From NCBI GenBank assembly GCA_963735025.1, contig CAVTJG010000019.1, positions 28,596 to 92,595 on the forward strand: DNA of 64,000 nucleotides. Reading direction: 5' to 3'. Every line of letters starts with the position of its first letter. Position 1 is the first letter of the stretch. A program made the translations under genes and the position numbers. Of the stretch, positions 7,437 through 53,755 are shown piece after piece. Origin of the DNA: an uncultured beta proteobacterium (GTDB lineage Bacteria; Pseudomonadota; Gammaproteobacteria; Burkholderiales; SG8-39). Below the pieces are notes generated by a model. It saw only the letters and a list, made by a program, of their open reading frames with translations, was not told the DNA's origin and made no database searches.

Positions 7437-9315
<1,879 letters not shown>

Positions 9316-9744
9316 ATGACATCAGGACCGACGATCAGCCGTTCCGTGTCGAGCTAGGCGATTGAAGCCATACATTTCATGGTTTCCGTCCCGGACGGGC
9401 GATCGGGTGCGCGACGATGGTGCTGCATGTACTCAATTGAGGTCAAGTAACCGTGACACAAGGAACGCTCAAATGTCCCACATGGGGGCGTTCTTGCTTC
9501 TCGGATGCGATCCACCTGAATTCATTTTGAAAAAGAGTGCGATCGATTGATGGTCTACTGGCAAAGCGAAGACGTACAAGATTCGGTGCTGCACGACACC
9601 ATTCGAGCGTTTGAACATGAAAAGTTAACGCATGTCCCGCGCGAAATACGCTCGCTCTCTTGGATGTTTCGCTACTATCGACGACTCGATTCCGACCAAG
9701 CGGGAACGGTCGGGCCTCCACAATCTGTACAAAGGCATCAAGCA

Positions 9745-10428
9745 ATGAAGGTCGTCATTCTTTGCGGCGGTAGAGGTACTCGCGCGTACCCATTTACCGA
9801 GCATCTACCCAAGCCCATGCTTCCCGTCAACGGACAACCGATCGTAATGCATCTCATGCGAATCTTCGCCAATCAGGGCTATAAGGATTTCATACTGTCC
9901 CTGGGTTATCGCGAAGAGGTCATTCGGGACTATTTCGACCGAAAAATGCTCGACTGGAACGTGGAGCTGGTCTCGACCGGCGTCGATACTGACACTGGTG
10001 GCCGCATCGCAAAGTGTGCCGACATGTTGGGAGACACTTTCATGGCGACGTACGCGGATGGGCTTTCGAATATCTCGATTAAAGGCCTCCACGAATTCCA
10101 TCATAGCCATAGTGGCCTGGCGACCGTCACCACGGTGCCGCTCGTTTCGCAGTATGGGCTCTTGGATGTCGCATGGGACGGTCGGGTGGAAGCCTTTCGT
10201 GAAAAGCCGACGCTCAAAGAGTACTGGATAAACGCAGGGTTCTTCGTGTTCGACCGAGCCGTTTTCGATCACTGGAAGGGCGAAAATCTGGAACGCGATG
10301 TGCTGCCAGGTCTTGCGGCTAAGGGCTTGATCTACGCGTACCGAAACGACGGGCTCTTCAAATCCATGGACACGTTCAAGGATCAAATTGACATGGAGGA
10401 ATTGGTGCAGAAGGGGAAGATTGCGTGA
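9745..10428 (+). CDS. Sugar-1-phosphate nucleotidyltransferase (glucose-1-phosphate cytidylyltransferase-like)
   Basis: 'MKVVILCGGRGTR..PKPM', 'DTGGRI', 'TYADG', 'INAGFFVF', 'MDT.KD'. Confidence 0.85.
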   Translation: MKVVILCGGRGTRAYPFTEHLPKPMLPVNGQPIVMHLMRIFANQGYKDFILSLGYREEVIRDYFDRKMLDWNVELVSTGVDTDTGGRIAKCADMLGDTFMATYADGLSNISIKGLHEFHHSHSGLATVTTVPLVSQYGLLDVAWDGRVEAFREKPTLKEYWINAGFFVFDRAVFDHWKGENLERDVLPGLAAKGLIYAYRNDGLFKSMDTFKDQIDMEELVQKGKIA

Positions 10429-10573
10429 AACCCACGGCAGGCTCCCGAAGTGCGCCAATTGCGAAGCGCAATTTAGCGGCCCATGGGCTTGAGCGTCGGG
10501 ATATCTTACCGTTGGGTGAATTGGTGCTCGAGTATTTCGCGCTAAAGTTCTAAATATCAGCGGGTTATTGCCC

Positions 10574-10589
10574 CGGCGTGGAATTTGCT
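10574..10589 (+). promoter_or_regulatory. Sigma54 (-24/-12) promoter upstream of PEP-CTERM gene
   Basis: CGGCGTGGAATTTGCT: GG-N10-GC with TTGC at -12. Confidence 0.6.
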
Positions 10590-10652
10590 TCGAAGCGTAA
10601 ATAGCACTCCGTGACGGCATACGCCGGTGCTGGGCGCTGTTACCAAGGGGGC

Positions 10653-11372
10653 ATGGAAATGGTCGAGTTCCGACGAATGGTGAAGCGCTTCATCATGCTT
10701 TCGTTGCTGATTTTTTGGACGAACGCGAACGCACTGGTCGTCCCCAATCCGGCACCGGCAGCTTTTGGTCCCGACATTCTGGGAAGCGGATATTTCAACC
10801 CGACCGGGCCCGGCATCATCTCGGTGCGAATCTCCGACACGGGATTCACACTTGGCCTGGGTGGTTCCGAATTTGGCATGTTCTTTCAGTCGGATTCCGG
10901 CACTCTGATTCCGATCTTCCTGCCTGGCACCCAGGATCCGGATCCAGCGGGCCCCAGTTCATCTCCGCCCACGGCTGCAATAGTTTTGGGTACCGGCGAG
11001 GTCTACGTCAACGGCACTTTGCAGAATACGTTTGCGCCGAGAACAGGGCCCGTAGGGTTCTATCTGGCACCGTCACCGACTCTCCAGACCGTTTTCGGGG
11101 TGAATCAGATCTTTTCCGATCCCTCCCTCAACCCCTTGGGCGAGGATATGGTCGGGACATTTCCCATCATCGGCGTTCCAGAAGCGTATCTCCTAGGCTT
11201 CGCCGTGATGGATCTAAATGACCCCACCTCTGTCGTTCCGCTAGGGTATTCCGCGGTGGTCAATCTTTCGGTGCCCGAGCCGGGCACACTGGCGCTCGCG
11301 TTCTTGGGGGTAGCGGGTGCGCTAATGCTACGTCGCCAGCGACGACTCATACCCGAATCTACTGCCTGCTGA
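10653..11372 (+). CDS. PEP-CTERM sorting-domain surface protein (start 10653 or 10677)
   Basis: Signal peptide 'KRFIMLSLLIFWTNANA'; C-terminal 'VPEPGTLALAFLGVAGALMLRRQRR'. Confidence 0.9.
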   Translation: MEMVEFRRMVKRFIMLSLLIFWTNANALVVPNPAPAAFGPDILGSGYFNPTGPGIISVRISDTGFTLGLGGSEFGMFFQSDSGTLIPIFLPGTQDPDPAGPSSSPPTAAIVLGTGEVYVNGTLQNTFAPRTGPVGFYLAPSPTLQTVFGVNQIFSDPSLNPLGEDMVGTFPIIGVPEAYLLGFAVMDLNDPTSVVPLGYSAVVNLSVPEPGTLALAFLGVAGALMLRRQRRLIPESTAC

Positions 11373-11454
11373 CCGTTCGAACGTTCCCCTTCCAGAGGAT
11401 CTAGCATGGTCATGGGCGGGCGGGCCGGCCGGCAATAAGCCAGCTCGGCTGCCC

Positions 11455-12861
11455 CTAGTAGGCGTTTTCGCCCTTGAGGACGGTCAGGATGGTTCGCATC
11501 AGGATCTTCAGGTCCATCCAAAGGGACCAATTGTCGATGTACTCGAGGTCCAGTCTGATCCGCTGCTCGATCTTTTCGAGCGTGTCTGTTTCGCCGCGAT
11601 AGCCATTGACTTGCGCCCAGCCGGTGATGCCCGGCTTCACCTTGTGGCGCCACATGTAGCGATTGACGAGATTCCGTTGCCGCTCGTTCATGGCCACGGG
11701 GTGTGGACGGGGACCGACTATGGACATGCGGCCCTGAATTACATTGATTAGTTGCGGAAGTTCATCAAGCGACGTTTTGCGCAGGAATGCGCCGACAGCC
11801 GTGACGCGCGGATCGTTCTTGGTCGCTTGTGAAAATTTGCTTTCGTCTTCCCTCACGCTCATTGTCCGAAACTTCCAGATCATAAACTCCCGTCCATCCA
11901 GCCCATATCTACGCTGACGGAAAATCGCAGGCCCCCTCGACGTCAGTCGCACTATGAGGGCAATCACAAGCATCGGTATCGCCATCACGCACAGCAAGCC
12001 AAGCGCAATGCACACGTCAGACAGACGTTTGACCGCCGCATTCATGCCATAGAACGGCGAACCAACCAGGTTAATAACCGGTAGATCGCCGACCGCCTCC
12101 CAATGGGCGCCCAGCAGGTCGAAGCTTGAAAAGTCCGGCACAAAGTACACGGAGGCGGTGGTGTCGCTGAGTCGGTTCATCAGCTCCTTGATGCGAGTGA
12201 CCGACTTCAATGGCAGTGCGATATAAACGATATCGATCTCACCCTGTCGAACCTTTGCTGCGAGGTCCGTGAAATTTCCGCAAATGTCCGCGACCACGGT
12301 CGAAGTGCGATCGTCAGCGGCGCGCCTGTCATCGAAGAACCCGACGATGCGAAGTCCCATCCACGCCGTATGACGGATATTGTGCTCTACGCGCCGGCCG
12401 AGCTCGGTGGCACCGGCGATCGCGACAGTGCGGAAATTCCGGCCTTGGATTCGCAAGGCACGCAAGGAAATTCGAATCACCATCCTCGTCGCGGCCAAAG
12501 ACGAGAAGCCGAGTCCGAACCAGACCAGCGGCAGCTGACGCGGTCCATCTTGGGCGAGATCTAGTGTGTGAATTATGAATACAACGCCGAGCAGGGTAGT
12601 GACCCAGCATAGGAAAAGACGCGCAAGTTCCGTGCGCAATGGCGAGATACGCCATGAGCGGTATAGGCGAAGATGATTCGAGGAGATCCAGAAAATGCTA
12701 GTCGCGAGTAGTGCAAGAATCGTCTCGGTCTTTGCCCACGAAATCCCAACGATCTCGCACGTCACCCACAGAGACGCCGACACCCAGGTCAGGTCGAGAA
12801 CTCGGCTGAACTCGACGAGCGCCGGCGCGTAGGGTTTGATGAGTCCATCCTCGGCAAACAC
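11455..12861 (-). CDS. wcaJ: Undecaprenyl-phosphate glucose phosphotransferase
   Basis: N-terminal TM helices; 'KFRTM', 'LRKTSLDELPQL', 'VGPRPH', 'VKPGITGWAQVNG.RG'. Confidence 0.92.
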   Translation of the reverse strand: MFAEDGLIKPYAPALVEFSRVLDLTWVSASLWVTCEIVGISWAKTETILALLATSIFWISSNHLRLYRSWRISPLRTELARLFLCWVTTLLGVVFIIHTLDLAQDGPRQLPLVWFGLGFSSLAATRMVIRISLRALRIQGRNFRTVAIAGATELGRRVEHNIRHTAWMGLRIVGFFDDRRAADDRTSTVVADICGNFTDLAAKVRQGEIDIVYIALPLKSVTRIKELMNRLSDTTASVYFVPDFSSFDLLGAHWEAVGDLPVINLVGSPFYGMNAAVKRLSDVCIALGLLCVMAIPMLVIALIVRLTSRGPAIFRQRRYGLDGREFMIWKFRTMSVREDESKFSQATKNDPRVTAVGAFLRKTSLDELPQLINVIQGRMSIVGPRPHPVAMNERQRNLVNRYMWRHKVKPGITGWAQVNGYRGETDTLEKIEQRIRLDLEYIDNWSLWMDLKILMRTILTVLKGENAY

Positions 12862-13389
12862 GTTTACCTCGGGCGATTTGCTACAAAAAAGTGCCGCTCA
12901 GCTTGATGGCCGACCCGGCGTTCGATTCGGAGCAGGAGGCGCGCCGAGCGTACGTATCGGCGATCATTCACGACACCCCTTTGGGCACGAAATGGCTTTG
13001 CCTTCTCCGTACAAAGTCTGCAGACATTCGACCATGGCGCGGTCGTATATCTTAGCTGTTGCTACCATTCGGGCTCGTTTTGCGAAGCTGGAGAACGGTA
13101 ATATTGGGCACTAGCGGGGGTCGATTTCTATCCGATTTCTAGACGATTTCGGATCGACGGCTGGCCTATTTCAGGGCCGACGTCTTAGCTCTGGTTGGCC
13201 AAAGCACCCGGGGGCGGGCGACAGAGCAAACCGTGTTGTGGTCGCTTTGCGATCGCGGCCAAACCTCGTTCCGCTGTACGACTCTCGCTTTTAATCGCCC
13301 GCCTTACATTGCGCGGCCATATGGGCAGTGACGGCTTCGATCTGCTGGAGCATCTTCAAGCCGCTCTGGCGGTGAAAAAGAGGCCTGCC

Positions 13390-13745
13390 GTGCATCACGC
13401 ACCTGGACCAGTTGCCGTTGATCGAGTGATGGAAATGGTGATGCTGAGATCGCACGTATTGCGGCGGGCTGGGGATCACGCCGAACAGAAATCCGAACGC
13501 GGACAGCGCGAAACAGGCCGCCGAGTCCTCACTTATGCATCAGCACGAAGTGACCGCAGGAGAAAAAGGCTCGTCACGAGCGTCACCGCGGCAGCTAGCC
13601 AGTAGTTCAACTCGGCACTCCGCGCGACGACAATCCACAGAACCGCCACCGGCAGCAGGGTCGTAAGAACCTGAATCGATCCCTTAAGGTTGTCCGGCGT
13701 GACATGGCCCTGGATGAACGCCCGCTTGACGCTCCTTATCGCAGC
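13390..13745 (-). pseudogene. Degraded fatty acid desaturase fragment
   Basis: Pieces in different frames: 'QVLTTLLPVAVLW...SLFLLR', 'FVLMHK*GLGGLFR' (decayed first His box), 'FGFLFGVIPSPPQYVRSQHHHFHHSINGNW' (second His box); frameshifts, stop and truncation. Confidence 0.75.
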
Positions 13746-13866
13746 AACTGTAGGCAATGCGCTGGGGCCTCCACGTCGCAAACCTGGAAAATTTCCGGGA
13801 AATCAAGTCGCATGCTGTCGCCCTGGGTTGGCCGGCTCGCACGGGCGCGTGCCGTCGGATTTCAAT

Positions 13867-13940
13867 TGGAGGCGGGGGTCGGAATCGAACCGGCGTCCAC
13901 GGCTTTGCAGGCCGCTGCATGACCACTCTGCCACCCCGCC
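13867..13940 (-). tRNA. tRNA-Cys (GCA)
   Basis: Reverse complement GGCGGGGTGGCAGAGTGGTCATGCAGCGGCCTGCAAAGCCGT...GGTTCGATTCC...CTCCA, 74 nt with CCA. Confidence 0.97.
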
Positions 13941-14000
13941 GCGAGGCGCCCTGCCACGGATCCGAAGTTTCCGCACCGACGGACAGGGCCCTGGAAAGCG

Positions 14001-14028
14001 AAAAAGGGAAAGCGCGCTGCGCTTTCCC
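14001..14028 (-). terminator. Intrinsic terminator-like hairpin between tRNA-Gly and tRNA-Cys
   Basis: 10-bp stem GGGAAAGCGC/GCGCTTTCCC followed by T5 on minus strand. Confidence 0.6.
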
Positions 14029-14078
14029 CTTCGGAGGCCCCGCGCGCATTACTCCGCGCAAGGCTTCCCGTACGAATC

Positions 14079-14154
14079 TGGAGCGGGAAACGAGTCTCGA
14101 ACTCGCGACCTCAACCTTGGCAAGGTTGCGCTCTACCAACTGAGCTATTCCCGC
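14079..14154 (-). tRNA. tRNA-Gly (GCC)
   Basis: GCGGGAATAGCTCAGTTGGTAGAGCGCAACCTTGCCAAGGTTG...GTTCGAG...CTCCA, 76 nt. Confidence 0.97.
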
Positions 14155-14834: not shown

Positions 14835-16655
14835 TCAATGCAGGTCGCGATAGATGCGCTCGGCGAGGATCCGGCTGATGCCCTCCACCTGCGCGAGGTC
14901 CTCGATGCTCGCGGATGTGACGCCCCGCAGCCCGCCAAAACGCTCCAGCAGCTGCCGCCGTCGCTTTGCGCCCACACCGGGGATGCCCTCGAGCGTCGAC
15001 GTCACGCGCGCCTTGCCACGTCGGGCACGGTGGCCGGTGATCGCGAATCGATGCGCTTCGTCGCGAATCTGCTGAATGAGGTGCAGTCCCGGATGGTCGC
15101 TTGGCAGGCGCATCGTGCGCTCGCTGGCCGCGAGCACGAGCTCTTCCCTACCCGGCCGGCGCTCGGGACCCTTGGCCACGCCGATCAGGTAGACGTCCGA
15201 AAGCCCGAGCTCGGCGAGCACTTCCTTCGCGACACCGACCTGCCCCTTGCCGCCATCGATCAGCACGAGATCCGGAACGACGCCCTCCCCGCGCGTCACT
15301 CTTTCATAGCGTCGTTGCAGCGCGGAGCGCAGCGCGCCGTAATCGTCCCCTGGGGTGACGCCGGTGATGTTGTACCGTCGGTACTCCCCGTTTCGCATGC
15401 GCAGTTGATCGTAGATTACGCACGCCGCGACCGGCGCCTCGCCCATAGTGTGGCTCACGTCGAAGCATTCGATACGCTGCACCGCTGGCGAAAGCGCAAG
15501 CGCCTCGCGCATTGAGGCAAGCCGTGATTCCTGCGTGCCCCGCTCGCGAGTACGCTGTGCAAGCGCGAGCTCGGCGTTGCGCGCCGCCATTTCCAGCCAC
15601 GCGCGACGCTCGGTCTGCGGGCGCGTGACGATCTGCACCGGGCGCCCGGCATGCTGTGTCAGCAACGCAGCAAGCTCGTCGACGCCCGCGCCTGCTTCGA
15701 TCACGATCACCGACGGAGCAGGCGCTTGCAGATAGTGCTGTGCGAGAAATGCGCCCACCACGTCATCGGGACTATGCGCCTCCGCATGCTCCGGGAAGAA
15801 GCTCCGGTCTCCCAGGTACCGGCCATTTCTCACCATCACGAGGTTTACGCACGCGACATCGCTCTCCATCACGCAGGCGACAGCGTCGACGTCAGCTGCC
15901 TTGGCCGTGTCGACATACTGCGTCTGCTGAACGCCCGAGAGCGATTTGATCTGGTCGCGGTGTATCGCGGCCCGTTCGTACTCGCGCCGCTCCGAGGCTT
16001 CCTGCATGCGGTTTGCCAGCCCGGTGAGGACGTCGTCTTCGCGTCCTTCCATGAAGAGTGCGGCGTTTTTCACGTCCGCACTGTACTCGCCCGGGCCGAT
16101 CAAGCCCACGCACGGCGCCGAGCAGCGCCGAATCTGGTGCAGAAGGCAGGGGCGCGATCGATTCTGGAACACCGATTCCTCGCAGGTTCGCAGGCGAAAG
16201 ACCTTCTGCAGCAGCTGGATGCTCTCCCTGACCGCGGAGGCGCTGGGAAACGGTCCGTAGTAGGTGTTGTCGGGATCGAGCGCGCCGCGATGAAATCCCA
16301 GGCGCGGGTACTGGCCGCCGCCGATCATCAGATACGGATAGGACTTGTCGTCACGGAAGAGGATGTTGTAGCGCGGCGCGAGCGATTTGATCAGATTGTT
16401 CTCGAGCAGGAGGGCCTCCCCTTCCGAACTCGTCACCGTCACCTCCACGCCGGCCACTTGCGAAAGCATGATCTGGGTGCGCGGACCGTGATCCGATTTC
16501 TGGAAGTAGGATGCGACCCGCTTTCTGAGATCGCGCGCCTTGCCGACGTACAGGACGTTGTGCCCCGCGTCGAGCATGCGGTACACGCCCGGCTGATGAG
16601 GCAGCTCCGCGATCAGAGTCGCGCTGTCGAACACGCCAGTCTCTGAAGATGACAT
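14835..16655 (-). CDS. uvrC: Excinuclease ABC subunit C
   Basis: GIY-YIG 'PGVYRM..YVGKA', 'IECFDVSH', 'LIDGGKGQ', HhH 'GVGAKRR'. Confidence 0.96.
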   Translation of the reverse strand: MSSSETGVFDSATLIAELPHQPGVYRMLDAGHNVLYVGKARDLRKRVASYFQKSDHGPRTQIMLSQVAGVEVTVTSSEGEALLLENNLIKSLAPRYNILFRDDKSYPYLMIGGGQYPRLGFHRGALDPDNTYYGPFPSASAVRESIQLLQKVFRLRTCEESVFQNRSRPCLLHQIRRCSAPCVGLIGPGEYSADVKNAALFMEGREDDVLTGLANRMQEASERREYERAAIHRDQIKSLSGVQQTQYVDTAKAADVDAVACVMESDVACVNLVMVRNGRYLGDRSFFPEHAEAHSPDDVVGAFLAQHYLQAPAPSVIVIEAGAGVDELAALLTQHAGRPVQIVTRPQTERRAWLEMAARNAELALAQRTRERGTQESRLASMREALALSPAVQRIECFDVSHTMGEAPVAACVIYDQLRMRNGEYRRYNITGVTPGDDYGALRSALQRRYERVTRGEGVVPDLVLIDGGKGQVGVAKEVLAELGLSDVYLIGVAKGPERRPGREELVLAASERTMRLPSDHPGLHLIQQIRDEAHRFAITGHRARRGKARVTSTLEGIPGVGAKRRRQLLERFGGLRGVTSASIEDLAQVEGISRILAERIYRDLH

Positions 16656-16680: not shown

Positions 16681-17388
16681 CTAATCGCGGCGCGCCGCAG
16701 TGCCGAGAAAATCCGCAATGTCGCGCATGACCGCCCCGAACATGGCTTCGGTCAGGCGCTTCGTCTGCGTATTGTATCGGCTGCAGTGGTAGCTATCGAA
16801 CAGGCGCAGACCGCCCGGAAGGTCGTGGATCGCGTGATGGGAGAACGCATACGCACCGACCTTGAGCGCACGCGCCCGGAGCACCGCAGCATGCGCGATT
16901 CGCCCGAGCGCCAGGACTGCCCGCGGCGGGCGAAGCGCCATCTCGGCCGCAAGAAAGCGATTGCAGCTCGCGATCTCGGCGGGCATCGGCTTGTTCTGGG
17001 GTGGGAGACATTTCACCGCATTGGTGACCCGGCAACCGATCAGCAGGAGACCATCGTCCGGTTCGCTGGAGCCCGCATGGCTCGCGAAGCCGAAACGATG
17101 CAACGTCCGATATAGGAGGATGCCCGCATGGTCGCCGGTGAACGGCCGGCCCGTGCGGTTCGCGCCATGCATGCCTGGTGCAAGACCGACGACCAGCAAC
17201 TTCGCGTCCGCATCGCCGAACGGCGGCACGGGGCGCGCGTGGTAGGCAGGGCGCGCGTGCCGGATGCCTTCCAGAAATGTGGCGAGCCGCGCGCAGTCGC
17301 GGCAGCCCAGGTCGAACGCCTCCCGGGGCCATGCCTCGCGGGGCCCGTTTCCGGTAAAATTCAGCGCTTTGACTTCCGGCACAGGCAA
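16681..17388 (-). CDS. Uracil-DNA glycosylase family 5 (UdgB-like, Fe-S); start possibly ATG 17332 with 1-nt indel
   Basis: CxxC, 'GLAPGMHGANRTGRPFTGD', 'NAVKCLPP.NKP', 'SYHCSRYNT'. Confidence 0.88.
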   Translation of the reverse strand: MPVPEVKALNFTGNGPREAWPREAFDLGCRDCARLATFLEGIRHARPAYHARPVPPFGDADAKLLVVGLAPGMHGANRTGRPFTGDHAGILLYRTLHRFGFASHAGSSEPDDGLLLIGCRVTNAVKCLPPQNKPMPAEIASCNRFLAAEMALRPPRAVLALGRIAHAAVLRARALKVGAYAFSHHAIHDLPGGLRLFDSYHCSRYNTQTKRLTEAMFGAVMRDIADFLGTAARRD

Positions 17389-17396
17389 GTCCGCTC

Positions 17397-17963
17397 ATGG
17401 CAAAAGTACTGGCAACCGAGATTCGCGTAGGCAACCTGCTCGAGTGGGACAAGCGGGTATGGCGCGTGCTGAAATCCTATCACGTGCATGTCGGCGGTCG
17501 CGGCGGCGCGTTCATGCAGGTCGAGATGAAAGACATCGAGGCCGGCACCAAGACGAACGTCCGGTATCGGACCGACGAGAAGGTCGAGCGCGCCTACGTC
17601 GAGCCGCGGGAGATGCAGTACCTATACCAGGACGCCGACGCGTTCGTATTCATGGACAAGGAGACCTACGAGCAGCTCAACATCGGGGCGGAGCTGCTGG
17701 AGGGCCAGACGGGATTCCTGCTTCCCAACACCGACGTTCAGGTCAATTTCCACAACGAGCGTCCGATCGGCGTCCAGTTGCCGCCGAGCGTCGTGCTGAC
17801 CGTTGTCGAGACGGATCCGAACATCAGGAATTCGACGGCCACCACGTCCTTCAAGCCGGCCAGGCTGGAAACCGGTATTACGGTACAGGTGCCGCCCTTC
17901 ATCGAGACCGGCGAGAAAATCAAGGTCAATACCGACGAGGGCGTCTACATGGAGCGGGCTTAG
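17397..17963 (+). CDS. efp: Elongation factor P (atypical loop HVHVGGRGG)
   Basis: 'YLY.D...FMD.ETYEQL', 'KPARLETG..VQVPPFI..GE.IKVNT..G.Y.ERA'. Confidence 0.93.
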   Translation: MAKVLATEIRVGNLLEWDKRVWRVLKSYHVHVGGRGGAFMQVEMKDIEAGTKTNVRYRTDEKVERAYVEPREMQYLYQDADAFVFMDKETYEQLNIGAELLEGQTGFLLPNTDVQVNFHNERPIGVQLPPSVVLTVVETDPNIRNSTATTSFKPARLETGITVQVPPFIETGEKIKVNTDEGVYMERA

Positions 17964-17987: not shown

Positions 17988-18014
17988 GTCATTCCCGCGA
18001 AAGCGGGAATCCAG
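17988..18014 (+). repeat. REP/dRS3-like palindromic repeat
   Basis: GTCATTCCCGCGAAAGCGGGAATCCAG between convergent efp and nagZ. Confidence 0.75.
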
Positions 18015-18036: not shown

Positions 18037-19065
18037 TCAGGCAAGCAGTCCCGAATCATTTGCGCTCGCAAGGGCCTGTATCGCCGTCGCATAACCGGCT
18101 TGCGCGTCCTTCGTCGGCGCACCCTGAAACCGCGCGATCCTTTCAGCCGCCACCGGCGCCGCGTTCAAGCCGGCGAGCAGTGCACTGGCGGCAGACCGGT
18201 TTCCGCACACCAGAACCATATCGCAGCCCGCGCCAAGCGCCGCCCTGCCACGCGCGACGATGTCGCCCGCGACGGTTGCGCCTTCCATTGACAGATCGTC
18301 GCTGAACACGAGCCCTTCGAAGCCGAGCTTTCCGCGCAGGATTCGACCGAGCCAGGCCTCGGAAAAGCCGGCCGCGCGCGCGTCGACCTTGGGGTAGATG
18401 ACGTGGGCCGGCATCACTCCCGCAAGTCCCGCAGCGATCAAAGCTGCGTAGGGAATCAGGTCGTTCGCCTCGATCTCCGCGAGGGGACGCTCGTCCACCG
18501 GCACCGCGACGTGTGAATCCGCGCGCACGTATCCGTGCCCCGGAAAATGTTTCGCGACCGCCCCCATTCCGAGCCGCCCCATGCCGCGCACCAGACTCGC
18601 GGCGAGGCGGGCGACGCCTTGCGGTGTATGGTGCAGGGCCCGGTCGCCGATGACGTTGCTCGAGCCGAAGTCGATATCGACCACCGGCGCGAAGCTCATG
18701 TCGACACCGTGATCACGCAGTTCCGATGCAAGGACAATACCGATCGCTCCGGCAAGATTTTCGGCGAGCCCTGCATCCCGATCGTATACGTCGCCGAGCG
18801 CACGCATCGGCGGAAGTCGGGTGAATCCTTCCTGAAAGCGCTGCACTCGCCCGCCTTCCTGATCGACGGCGATCAGCAGCGCGGGCGTTCGGAGGGCGTG
18901 TATGTCCGCCGTGAGCTGATCGAGCTGGGCGACTGACGAGAAGTTCTGCTTGAAAAGGATCACCCCGCCAACGGCCGGATGGGCGAGTACCTCGCGATCC
19001 GACGCGTCCAGGGTCAGTCCCGCAACGTCCAGCATCACCGGACCAAGCGGCATCTCAAGCGGCAT
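18037..19065 (-). CDS. nagZ: Beta-N-acetylhexosaminidase (GH3)
   Basis: 'VDQEGGRVQR', 'KHFPGHG...DSH', 'SDDLSM'. Confidence 0.95.
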   Translation of the reverse strand: MPLEMPLGPVMLDVAGLTLDASDREVLAHPAVGGVILFKQNFSSVAQLDQLTADIHALRTPALLIAVDQEGGRVQRFQEGFTRLPPMRALGDVYDRDAGLAENLAGAIGIVLASELRDHGVDMSFAPVVDIDFGSSNVIGDRALHHTPQGVARLAASLVRGMGRLGMGAVAKHFPGHGYVRADSHVAVPVDERPLAEIEANDLIPYAALIAAGLAGVMPAHVIYPKVDARAAGFSEAWLGRILRGKLGFEGLVFSDDLSMEGATVAGDIVARGRAALGAGCDMVLVCGNRSAASALLAGLNAAPVAAERIARFQGAPTKDAQAGYATAIQALASANDSGLLA

Positions 19066-19447
19066 CCAGTTCCCCTTCCAGAATGACGAACGCCGCGGCA
19101 ACTGCCCGCTCGTCGGTCAGGCTGACGTGCGCCTCATATATTCTTCGCGTTACGAGGAGATCGGCGAGCGCGTCGGAGAAACGCAGGCACGGCTTGCCGG
19201 AAGGCAGGTTTGCGACGCTGACATTCTGCCAGTTCACCGGGAAGTGGATCCCGGTCCCCATCGCCTTGGAGAAGGCTTCCTTCGCCGCGAACCGCTTGGC
19301 GAGGTAGGCCGCCGGCTTGCGATGCGCGGAGAATCGTTCCAGCTCGTGCGGCACCAGGATCTTGCGCGCAAAGCGCTCTCCGTGGCGTGCAAGCGCCTGT
19401 TCGATACGCGGAATCTCGACCAGATCCGTGCCGATGCCGATGATCAC
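19055..19447 (-). CDS. acpS: Holo-ACP synthase
   Basis: 'IGIGTDLV', 'FAAKEAFSKA.GTG', 'SGKP', 'VSLTDE'; GTG overlaps pdxJ stop. Confidence 0.95.
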   Translation of the reverse strand: MIIGIGTDLVEIPRIEQALARHGERFARKILVPHELERFSAHRKPAAYLAKRFAAKEAFSKAMGTGIHFPVNWQNVSVANLPSGKPCLRFSDALADLLVTRRIYEAHVSLTDERAVAAAFVILEGELDAA

Positions 19448-53677: not shown

Positions 53678-53755
53678 GTCATCCCCGCGTAGGCGGGGAT
53701 CCAGCCGGCGCATAAACGTGCGTAACCTGGATTCCCGCATTCGCGGGAATGACGG
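53678..53755. repeat. Inverted pair of REP/dRS3-like palindromes (REPIN-like)
   Basis: GTCATCCCCGCGTAGGCGGGGATCCAG ... CTGGATTCCCGCATTCGCGGGAATGACGG between convergent speB and phoU. Confidence 0.78.

Follow-up and report, generated by a model that had tools for sequence, protein, structure and literature searches.

A sole elongation factor P with an extended arginine-tipped loop belongs to a betaproteobacterial subtype found instead of the efp-earP pair

Elongation factor P (EF-P) helps ribosomes past proline runs. It sits on the ribosome, between the E and P sites, where the tip of its loop steadies the CCA end of peptidyl-tRNAPro, and the factor owes its reach either to a modification or to an extension of the loop (PMC11611912, PMC12856214, PMC13602936). 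Five EF-P types are named in the available text of three papers, which call the Betaproteobacteria EarP-type (PMC11388002, PMC12856214, PMC13602936), and reviews describe this group as using a rhamnosylated EF-P. The betaproteobacterial proteins of this type carry the rhamnosylated Arg32 on a 7-residue SGRN/GGRS loop and need EarP. EfpL (YeiP) of E. coli (PDB 8S8U) has a longer, 9-residue loop with an unmodified Arg tip; it is marked by a Pro that invariably stands three residues ahead of the Arg (PMC11611912), and it is always auxiliary, never having been found alone according to the available part of PMC11388002. The alphaproteobacterial Lys-type EF-Ps have a 7-residue PGKGG loop with a Lys tip and a Pro two residues upstream, and often occur with EpmA, which adjoins efp in Sinorhizobium.

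An Arg loop of yet another kind is known from the second EF-P of Nitrosomonas communis Nm2 (EF-PNico; UniProt A0A0F7KHW6; WP_046850460.1), whose loop, HVGGRG-GA, functions without modification and is not rhamnosylated (PMC12931083). In E. coli this protein restored colony size to 71.4% of wild type, performed better than E. coli EF-P on TPPH and was poor on LPPP; its mass was unchanged in the presence of the Shewanella oneidensis EarP, the +146 Da shift being absent (PMC12931083). The EF-P of D. radiodurans also works unmodified in E. coli, and the authors state that native confirmation is still required and that genomic data cannot separate unmodified from unknown-modified proteins (PMC12931083). 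In its available text, that paper presents the N. communis EF-P as one example, with no subfamily, spread, locus or origin given. A table in PMC11611912 contains at least four proteins with the HVGGRGGA loop, three from Nitrosospira and the one from N. communis, and files them under EF-P and not EfpL; for the three Nitrosospira it gives a single EF-P, with EpmA, EarP and YmfI all absent, and for N. communis two EF-Ps and EarP. An EF-P with this loop has thus already been tested once at the bench, where it worked unmodified in E. coli, and the protein described below is to that extent not wholly new.

The window, by which we mean the whole stretch of 64,000 nucleotides analysed here, comes from an uncultured betaproteobacterium of the Burkholderiales and carries on its forward strand, at 17397-17963, an intact efp frame of 188 codons. 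A profile search gave the 188-residue product 228.7 bits with TIGR00038, above the curated cut-off of 185.8, which identifies it as an EF-P; it contains the three EF-P Pfam domains (KOW, OB and C-terminal OB), and its predicted model (mean pLDDT 88.6) matches solved EF-Ps with TM scores up to 0.87. The domain I loop region, H29-F39, reads HVHVGGRGGAF and lies at 17481-17513, H29 starting at 17481 and F39 ending at 17513, with the CGC codon of R35 at 17499-17501; the coordinates given in the first-pass annotation are right. In the model, the loop is a coil between strands 20-30 and 39-46. By alignment with the E. coli references (taken from NC_000913), its Gly-rich part, H31-A38, has 8 residues, compared with 7 in E. 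coli EF-P and 9 in E. coli EfpL, and R35 stands in place of E. coli Lys34; the extra residue and the lack of a PGKG motif were thereby both borne out. The loop has no Pro and is not of the PGKGP kind either.

This loop is not peculiar to one contig. All 121 proteins examined, made up of the query plus its 120 best homologues, have the motif, and among the best 80 of 463 confirmed GTDB relatives, whose loci we surveyed, positions 29-38 are invariant in all 80 while their codons vary synonymously, so that the motif is neither chance nor error. In the same 80 loci the Asp of the domain III GDT motif, which contacts the E-site codon (PMC11611912), is replaced by Ser or Ala; here N145-S146-T147 (17829-17837, forward strand) takes the place of E. 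coli G-D-T. That Asp is also absent from many other EF-Ps, and its loss is therefore not special to the VGGRGG subfamily, as we call the proteins with this loop.

The third-position GC content of efp (GC3 0.84) is like that of the neighbouring genes (0.74-0.84), and a recent transfer of the gene into the host genome was rejected on this ground. Among the 92 plasmid and 16 phage records with a hit, none reached 60% identity, giving no sign of a mobile-element origin. No match to a sigma-70-like promoter was found for efp. Six RNA runs contained just 4-12% of the sequence words; four runs yielded contigs of relatives, which are no evidence for transcription of efp itself.

The nearest hits outside the VGGRGG family are Lys-type EF-Ps of the phylum, at 53-57% identity. 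For the Sphingomonas EF-P the identity with the product is 44%; E. coli EF-P reaches 35%, EfpL 31% and the EarP-type proteins, which likewise have an Arg tip, 28-37%. Overall, the alphaproteobacterial PGKGG Lys-type EF-Ps are the closest in sequence (44-57%). With these it shares the flank GGA[FY]xQ[VL]EMK, confirming the Lys-type resemblance noticed in the first-pass annotation, and an S[FY]KPA segment; it differs from them in its Arg tip, in the missing Pro and in its longer loop. The Arg-type EF-Ps of Deinococcus/Thermus also have the GRGGA loop end, although their own loop has 7 residues, and a Thermus EF-P chain is about 38% identical to the window protein.

Trees were built with the loop columns removed, as a quick tree of 104 rows and a fuller maximum-likelihood (ML) search of 57 rows (47 dropped), with two EfpL rows and no named Deinococcus/Thermus members in the sampling. 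Both put the VGGRGG clade with alphaproteobacterial-type PGKG Lys EF-Ps. Its closest neighbour is the Lys-type EF-P of G042, itself a genome of the Burkholderiales (support 83.7/94), and the wider alpha-type grouping has moderate support (SH-aLRT 90.8, bootstrap 65). In the ML trees the VGGRGG EF-P lies outside the EarP clade (100/100) and outside the EfpL clade of two rows; the AU test, for which the free search ran longer than the constrained ones, rejects neither affinity, a joint clade with the EarP type being 35-41 log units worse (p 0.057-0.13) and one with the two EfpL rows 19-23 log units worse (p 0.13-0.21). A first AU test on the quick tree had given p 0.73, a consequence of a poor free search. 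Judging from these sequence relationships, the subfamily is likely to be independent of the EarP type and EfpL in origin and may well have arisen from an alphaproteobacterial-like PGKGG Lys-type EF-P. The G042 protein (G042:C1:1996617-1997168; L089, L215), whose Lys loop is of the PGKGG kind, the nearest outside relative of the subfamily and 57% identical to the window protein, is the only EF-P of a single-contig genome without EarP whose genus mates are EarP-type.

EfpL deserves separate consideration, since its extended loop, with an Arg tip that is left unmodified, is likely to reflect the same working principle, and the 8-residue window loop shares with it both the Arg tip and a length above 7. 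We nevertheless think it very improbable that the window protein represents an auxiliary factor of the EfpL kind, branching off divergently on the EfpL/EarP side and left as the sole copy after loss of a main efp. The extended Arg-tipped loop would fit such a factor, as would the AU result and the co-occurrence of VGGRGG proteins with an EarP-type efp in three genomes of our survey (G037, G077, G502) and in N. communis. Yet the protein scores far below both EfpL cut-offs (137.9 against 264.05 bits with TIGR02178; 153.1 against 216 with NF003392), the defining Pro is replaced by Val32 in all of the best 80 of 463 loci, the 31% identity to E. coli EfpL compares with 44% to the Sphingomonas EF-P, and the ML trees are 19-23 log units better without a joint clade with EfpL. 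Finally, whereas EfpL is always auxiliary, VGGRGG EF-Ps usually stand alone: efp is single-copy in the host assembly and in 15 of 15 genomes of one genus (g316).

The host assembly (G000; 96.9% complete, 23 contigs) contains a single EF-P homologue by protein search, by local tblastn and phmmer and with the EFP_N model. The EarP model gave no match in it, although the same model detects the enzyme in 20 of 41 relatives; 14 control genomes were likewise without EarP. The EpmA model gave three matches in the assembly, all below the cut-off, the best being LysRS and the other two lying within one 600-residue frame that looks AspRS-like by inspection. Searches for EpmB and deoxyhypusine synthase, positive in controls, found neither in the assembly. 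The absence of earP, epmA and epmB reported for the window thus extends to the entire assembly, as does that of a second efp, and all three marks of the EpmA/B Lys type, the Lys tip and both enzyme genes, are missing.

To see how widely this arrangement occurs, one has to leave the host. A VGGRGG efp is present in 17 of 41 relatives, in 24 of 131 genomes sampled across the families of the Burkholderiales (hits of at least 70% identity; 19 new carriers, with 16 loops read directly and three assigned by identity) and in 16 of 46 genomes of one further family (loops read for 6), which makes, when pooled, 52 carriers in 17 family codes. All 52 were searched for EarP and 49 had no hit; the three with EarP (G037, G077 and G502) each have an EarP-type efp as well. 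Conversely, EarP was found in 35 of the 36 searched genomes with an EarP-type efp, the exception being 78% complete. The genomes are kin, and these counts are therefore not a statistical test. All 15 genomes of g316, each a single contig, carry a VGGRGG efp alone and without EarP, and public databases list proteins identical to their EF-P under the names Nitrosospira or Nitrosovibrio. Outside the Burkholderiales the type was not found in a sample of 261 genomes of the phylum (14 from the order, and heavily weighted to one outside family), in which no other hit exceeded 57% identity and all 23 outside-order loci read had a Lys loop. The profile, motif and co-occurrence results together support the first-pass proposal that the VGGRGG EF-P is a distinct subtype occurring instead of the efp-earP pair. 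We found no description of the subfamily in the open-access literature, to which our search was confined.

These observations also bear on a simpler reading, namely that the window protein is an ordinary EarP substrate and the host assembly simply lacks earP, or lacks a second efp. An Arg tip in a betaproteobacterium and an assembly that is 96.9% complete would allow it, and EarP tolerates some loop variation (PMC12931083). It is hardly credible, and largely refuted, given that 49 of 52 carriers are EarP-free, among them the 15 of 15 single-contig genomes of one genus, and that the homologue is not rhamnosylated by the Shewanella EarP (PMC12931083).

Several other EF-P arrangements came to light in the same genomes. 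Two VGGRGG carriers have a second EF-P homologue (G074:C1:17072-17620 and G123:C44:25405-25950; L094, L093) with the loop YHAGGGQFGG, whose tip has no Lys or Arg, an altered domain III loop and a long tree branch. Another atypical type is the sole EF-P of two genomes of family f47 (G070:C7:20185-20736 and G120:C17:1044-1592; L091, L092), with an 8-residue loop KSGTGGGA lacking a basic tip; neither genome has an EarP hit. Three genomes that are 92-96% complete (G012, G022, G058) gave no hit for EF-P or for EarP, probably through assembly gaps. In one bin, a VGGRGG efp stands in its usual context on three contigs (L194, L195, L190), which is probably a strain duplication.

At the window locus, efp diverges from a uracil-DNA glycosylase gene (udg, 16681-17388, reverse strand; start codon uncertain) and, beyond it, from uvrC (14835-16655, reverse strand; named by its sequence), the upstream landmark of the efp slot. 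The udg product belongs to the UDG superfamily, and its best solved relative is entry 2d3y (E 6.6e-52, the runner-up standing at 1.9e-11), the Thermus family-5 UDG. Downstream, efp converges with nagZ (beta-N-acetylhexosaminidase; 18037-19068, reverse strand; 449.9 bits against a cut-off of 207), the end of a lepA-lepB-rnc-era-recO-pdxJ-acpS-nagZ block. Between the two lies a palindromic dispersed repeat, ATTCCC-N8-GGGAAT (17991-18010), which has 117 copies in the genome, compared with 0-1 for spacers of 6, 7, 9 or 10, and a further window copy at 53731-53750. It folds as a hairpin, could act here as a terminator between efp and nagZ, and resembles the dRS3/REP-type repeats of Neisseria. Elsewhere in the window, beyond tRNA-Gly and tRNA-Cys, lies a polysaccharide cluster (8404-14154) with a WcaJ-type sugar transferase (11455-12861), ORFs that by inspection resemble a sugar nucleotidyltransferase and a sugar dehydratase, and an ORF (10611-11372) ending, also by inspection, in a PEP-CTERM-like tail, the inspected ORFs having no NCBIfam hit at 1e-8.

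Among the best 80 of 463 relatives, flanks of sufficient length show uvrC upstream of efp and divergent in 68 of 69 loci, and nagZ downstream and convergent in 59 of 62. The udg gene adjoins the VGGRGG efp in 14 of these 80 and adjoins uvrC in 23 of 39 genomes without a VGGRGG efp; it is an incidental neighbour, not tied to efp. None of the 80 has earP at the locus. A linked modifier gene was rejected as well: apart from the flanking block, no cluster of downstream ORFs occurs in more than 5 of the best 80 loci, and hence no candidate modifier travels with the VGGRGG efp.

The first-pass annotation had gone further and suggested that the usual efp-earP pair, with earP placed between efp and uvrC, might have been replaced in situ. 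The uvrC-earP-efp order does exist in 7 genomes, where the pair fills the same slot in the same orientation as at the window; it is uncommon, however: just 8 of the 57 EarP-type loci have uvrC near earP-efp, and 0 of 8 do so in the window's own family. We also read the DNA upstream of uvrC in EarP-type genomes with the pair elsewhere, obtaining 39 regions longer than 3 kb. The nagZ block is retained in 27 of these, and efp is absent from all. Omitting G022 (no EF-P found; it also shows an empty slot) and G042 (Lys type), 26 of 37 keep the block around an empty slot. In the window's family the slot is empty in 7 of 7, and in one of its genomes (G008) udg sits 43 bases from nagZ. Since both types use the slot and many genomes show it empty, we take it to be an old efp position. 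In two genomes with both types (G037 and G077) the VGGRGG efp occupies the slot and the EarP-type efp lies at another locus, and in all three two-type genomes read, G502 included, the VGGRGG efp stands beside udg and apart from the EarP-type efp, with uvrC also seen in two. These arrangements, like the rarity of earP-efp near uvrC, lend no support to replacement in situ, which is one of several possible histories. In three genomes earP lies apart from the EarP-type efp (G037, with efp on C3 and earP on C13; G502, with efp at 1759615 of C1 and earP, not adjoining, at 1192560; and G147, L109), and two of the three also carry a VGGRGG efp.

The two types are mixed within families and even within one genus (g25), and the tree of the neighbouring block requires at least 11 changes of type, the ValS tree at least 8. 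The idea that the VGGRGG gene is inherited vertically and earP-efp is mobile agreed with the linked nagZ-rnc block (Spearman 0.66 with n 27, against 0.27 with n 30) and failed against the unlinked ValS (0.47, n 19, against 0.64, n 10); because the two tests disagree, we assign no direction to the change of type. An ancestor with both genes followed by reciprocal loss fits the data, and so does a repeated arrival of earP-efp with loss of the VGGRGG efp. Lineages of the Burkholderiales would probably keep one type or the other after carrying both, and loss of the VGGRGG efp would leave the empty uvrC-nagZ slot.

What the loop does in the cell can be approached through the N. communis protein. 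The forward primer used for its cloning encodes a first seven residues identical to those of the window efp, 50 of 58 residues of domain I are identical by eye, and the loop HVGGRGGA is the same; in loop and sequence kinship the window protein thus matches EF-PNico. The latter, however, accompanies an EarP-type efp and earP as a second copy, whereas the window EF-P is alone. On our analysis, the window gene probably encodes, as the sole EF-P of its host, a member of a widespread betaproteobacterial Arg-loop subfamily that likely works unmodified, one extra loop residue and the long Arg side chain perhaps standing in for a modification, as has been modelled for EfpL. A member of the same subfamily could instead have its Arg35 or a loop His natively modified by an unlinked enzyme and need this for LPPP-like stalls, which we consider unlikely. 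The LPPP motif of ValS is kept in 17 of the 19 carriers examined (G045 was unmatched by the pattern and G009 is truncated), and the unmodified homologue is poor on LPPP in E. coli; something must therefore cover LPPP, the candidates being the native ribosome, back-ups of the ABCF/YebC kind (the host assembly has four ABCF-linker matches and one YebC) or a modification. The strict invariance of H29-A38 could mark the recognition site of an enzyme, although tRNA contacts explain it equally well, and many EF-Ps have no assigned modification in the available text of PMC11388002. Against a modification, the unmodified homologue gives 71.4% rescue and exceeds E. coli EF-P on TPPH, while modification-dependent Arg EF-Ps work badly unmodified (PMC12931083), and the best 80 of 463 loci offer no co-located candidate gene. 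A fuller version, in which an old subfamily present in at least 17 Burkholderiales families, and the only EF-P of Nitrosospira and of numerous uncultured lineages, came to its extended Arg loop from an alphaproteobacterial-like Lys EF-P without EfpL being involved, passes LPPP in ValS by an undescribed native modification of the invariant loop and was displaced many times by earP-efp, not the other way round, seems to us quite doubtful.

The picture of the Betaproteobacteria as users of a rhamnosylated EF-P has to accommodate the 24 of 131 Burkholderiales genomes that carry this type, nearly always without EarP. An EF-P with an extended, likely unmodified Arg loop can be the only one of a cell, a situation in which EfpL was never found. 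Our analysis contributes figures for the exclusion of EarP, the pattern of empty slots, a likely ancestry among Lys-type EF-Ps and the cultured hosts with a sole copy, by which a single heterologous test becomes a subfamily. As cultured Nitrosospira carry the VGGRGG EF-P as their only one, its native state can be tested there, its native mass, essentiality and stall spectrum all being measurable. The repeated switches between types, even inside one genus, provide a natural test of how EF-P type bears on polyproline use.
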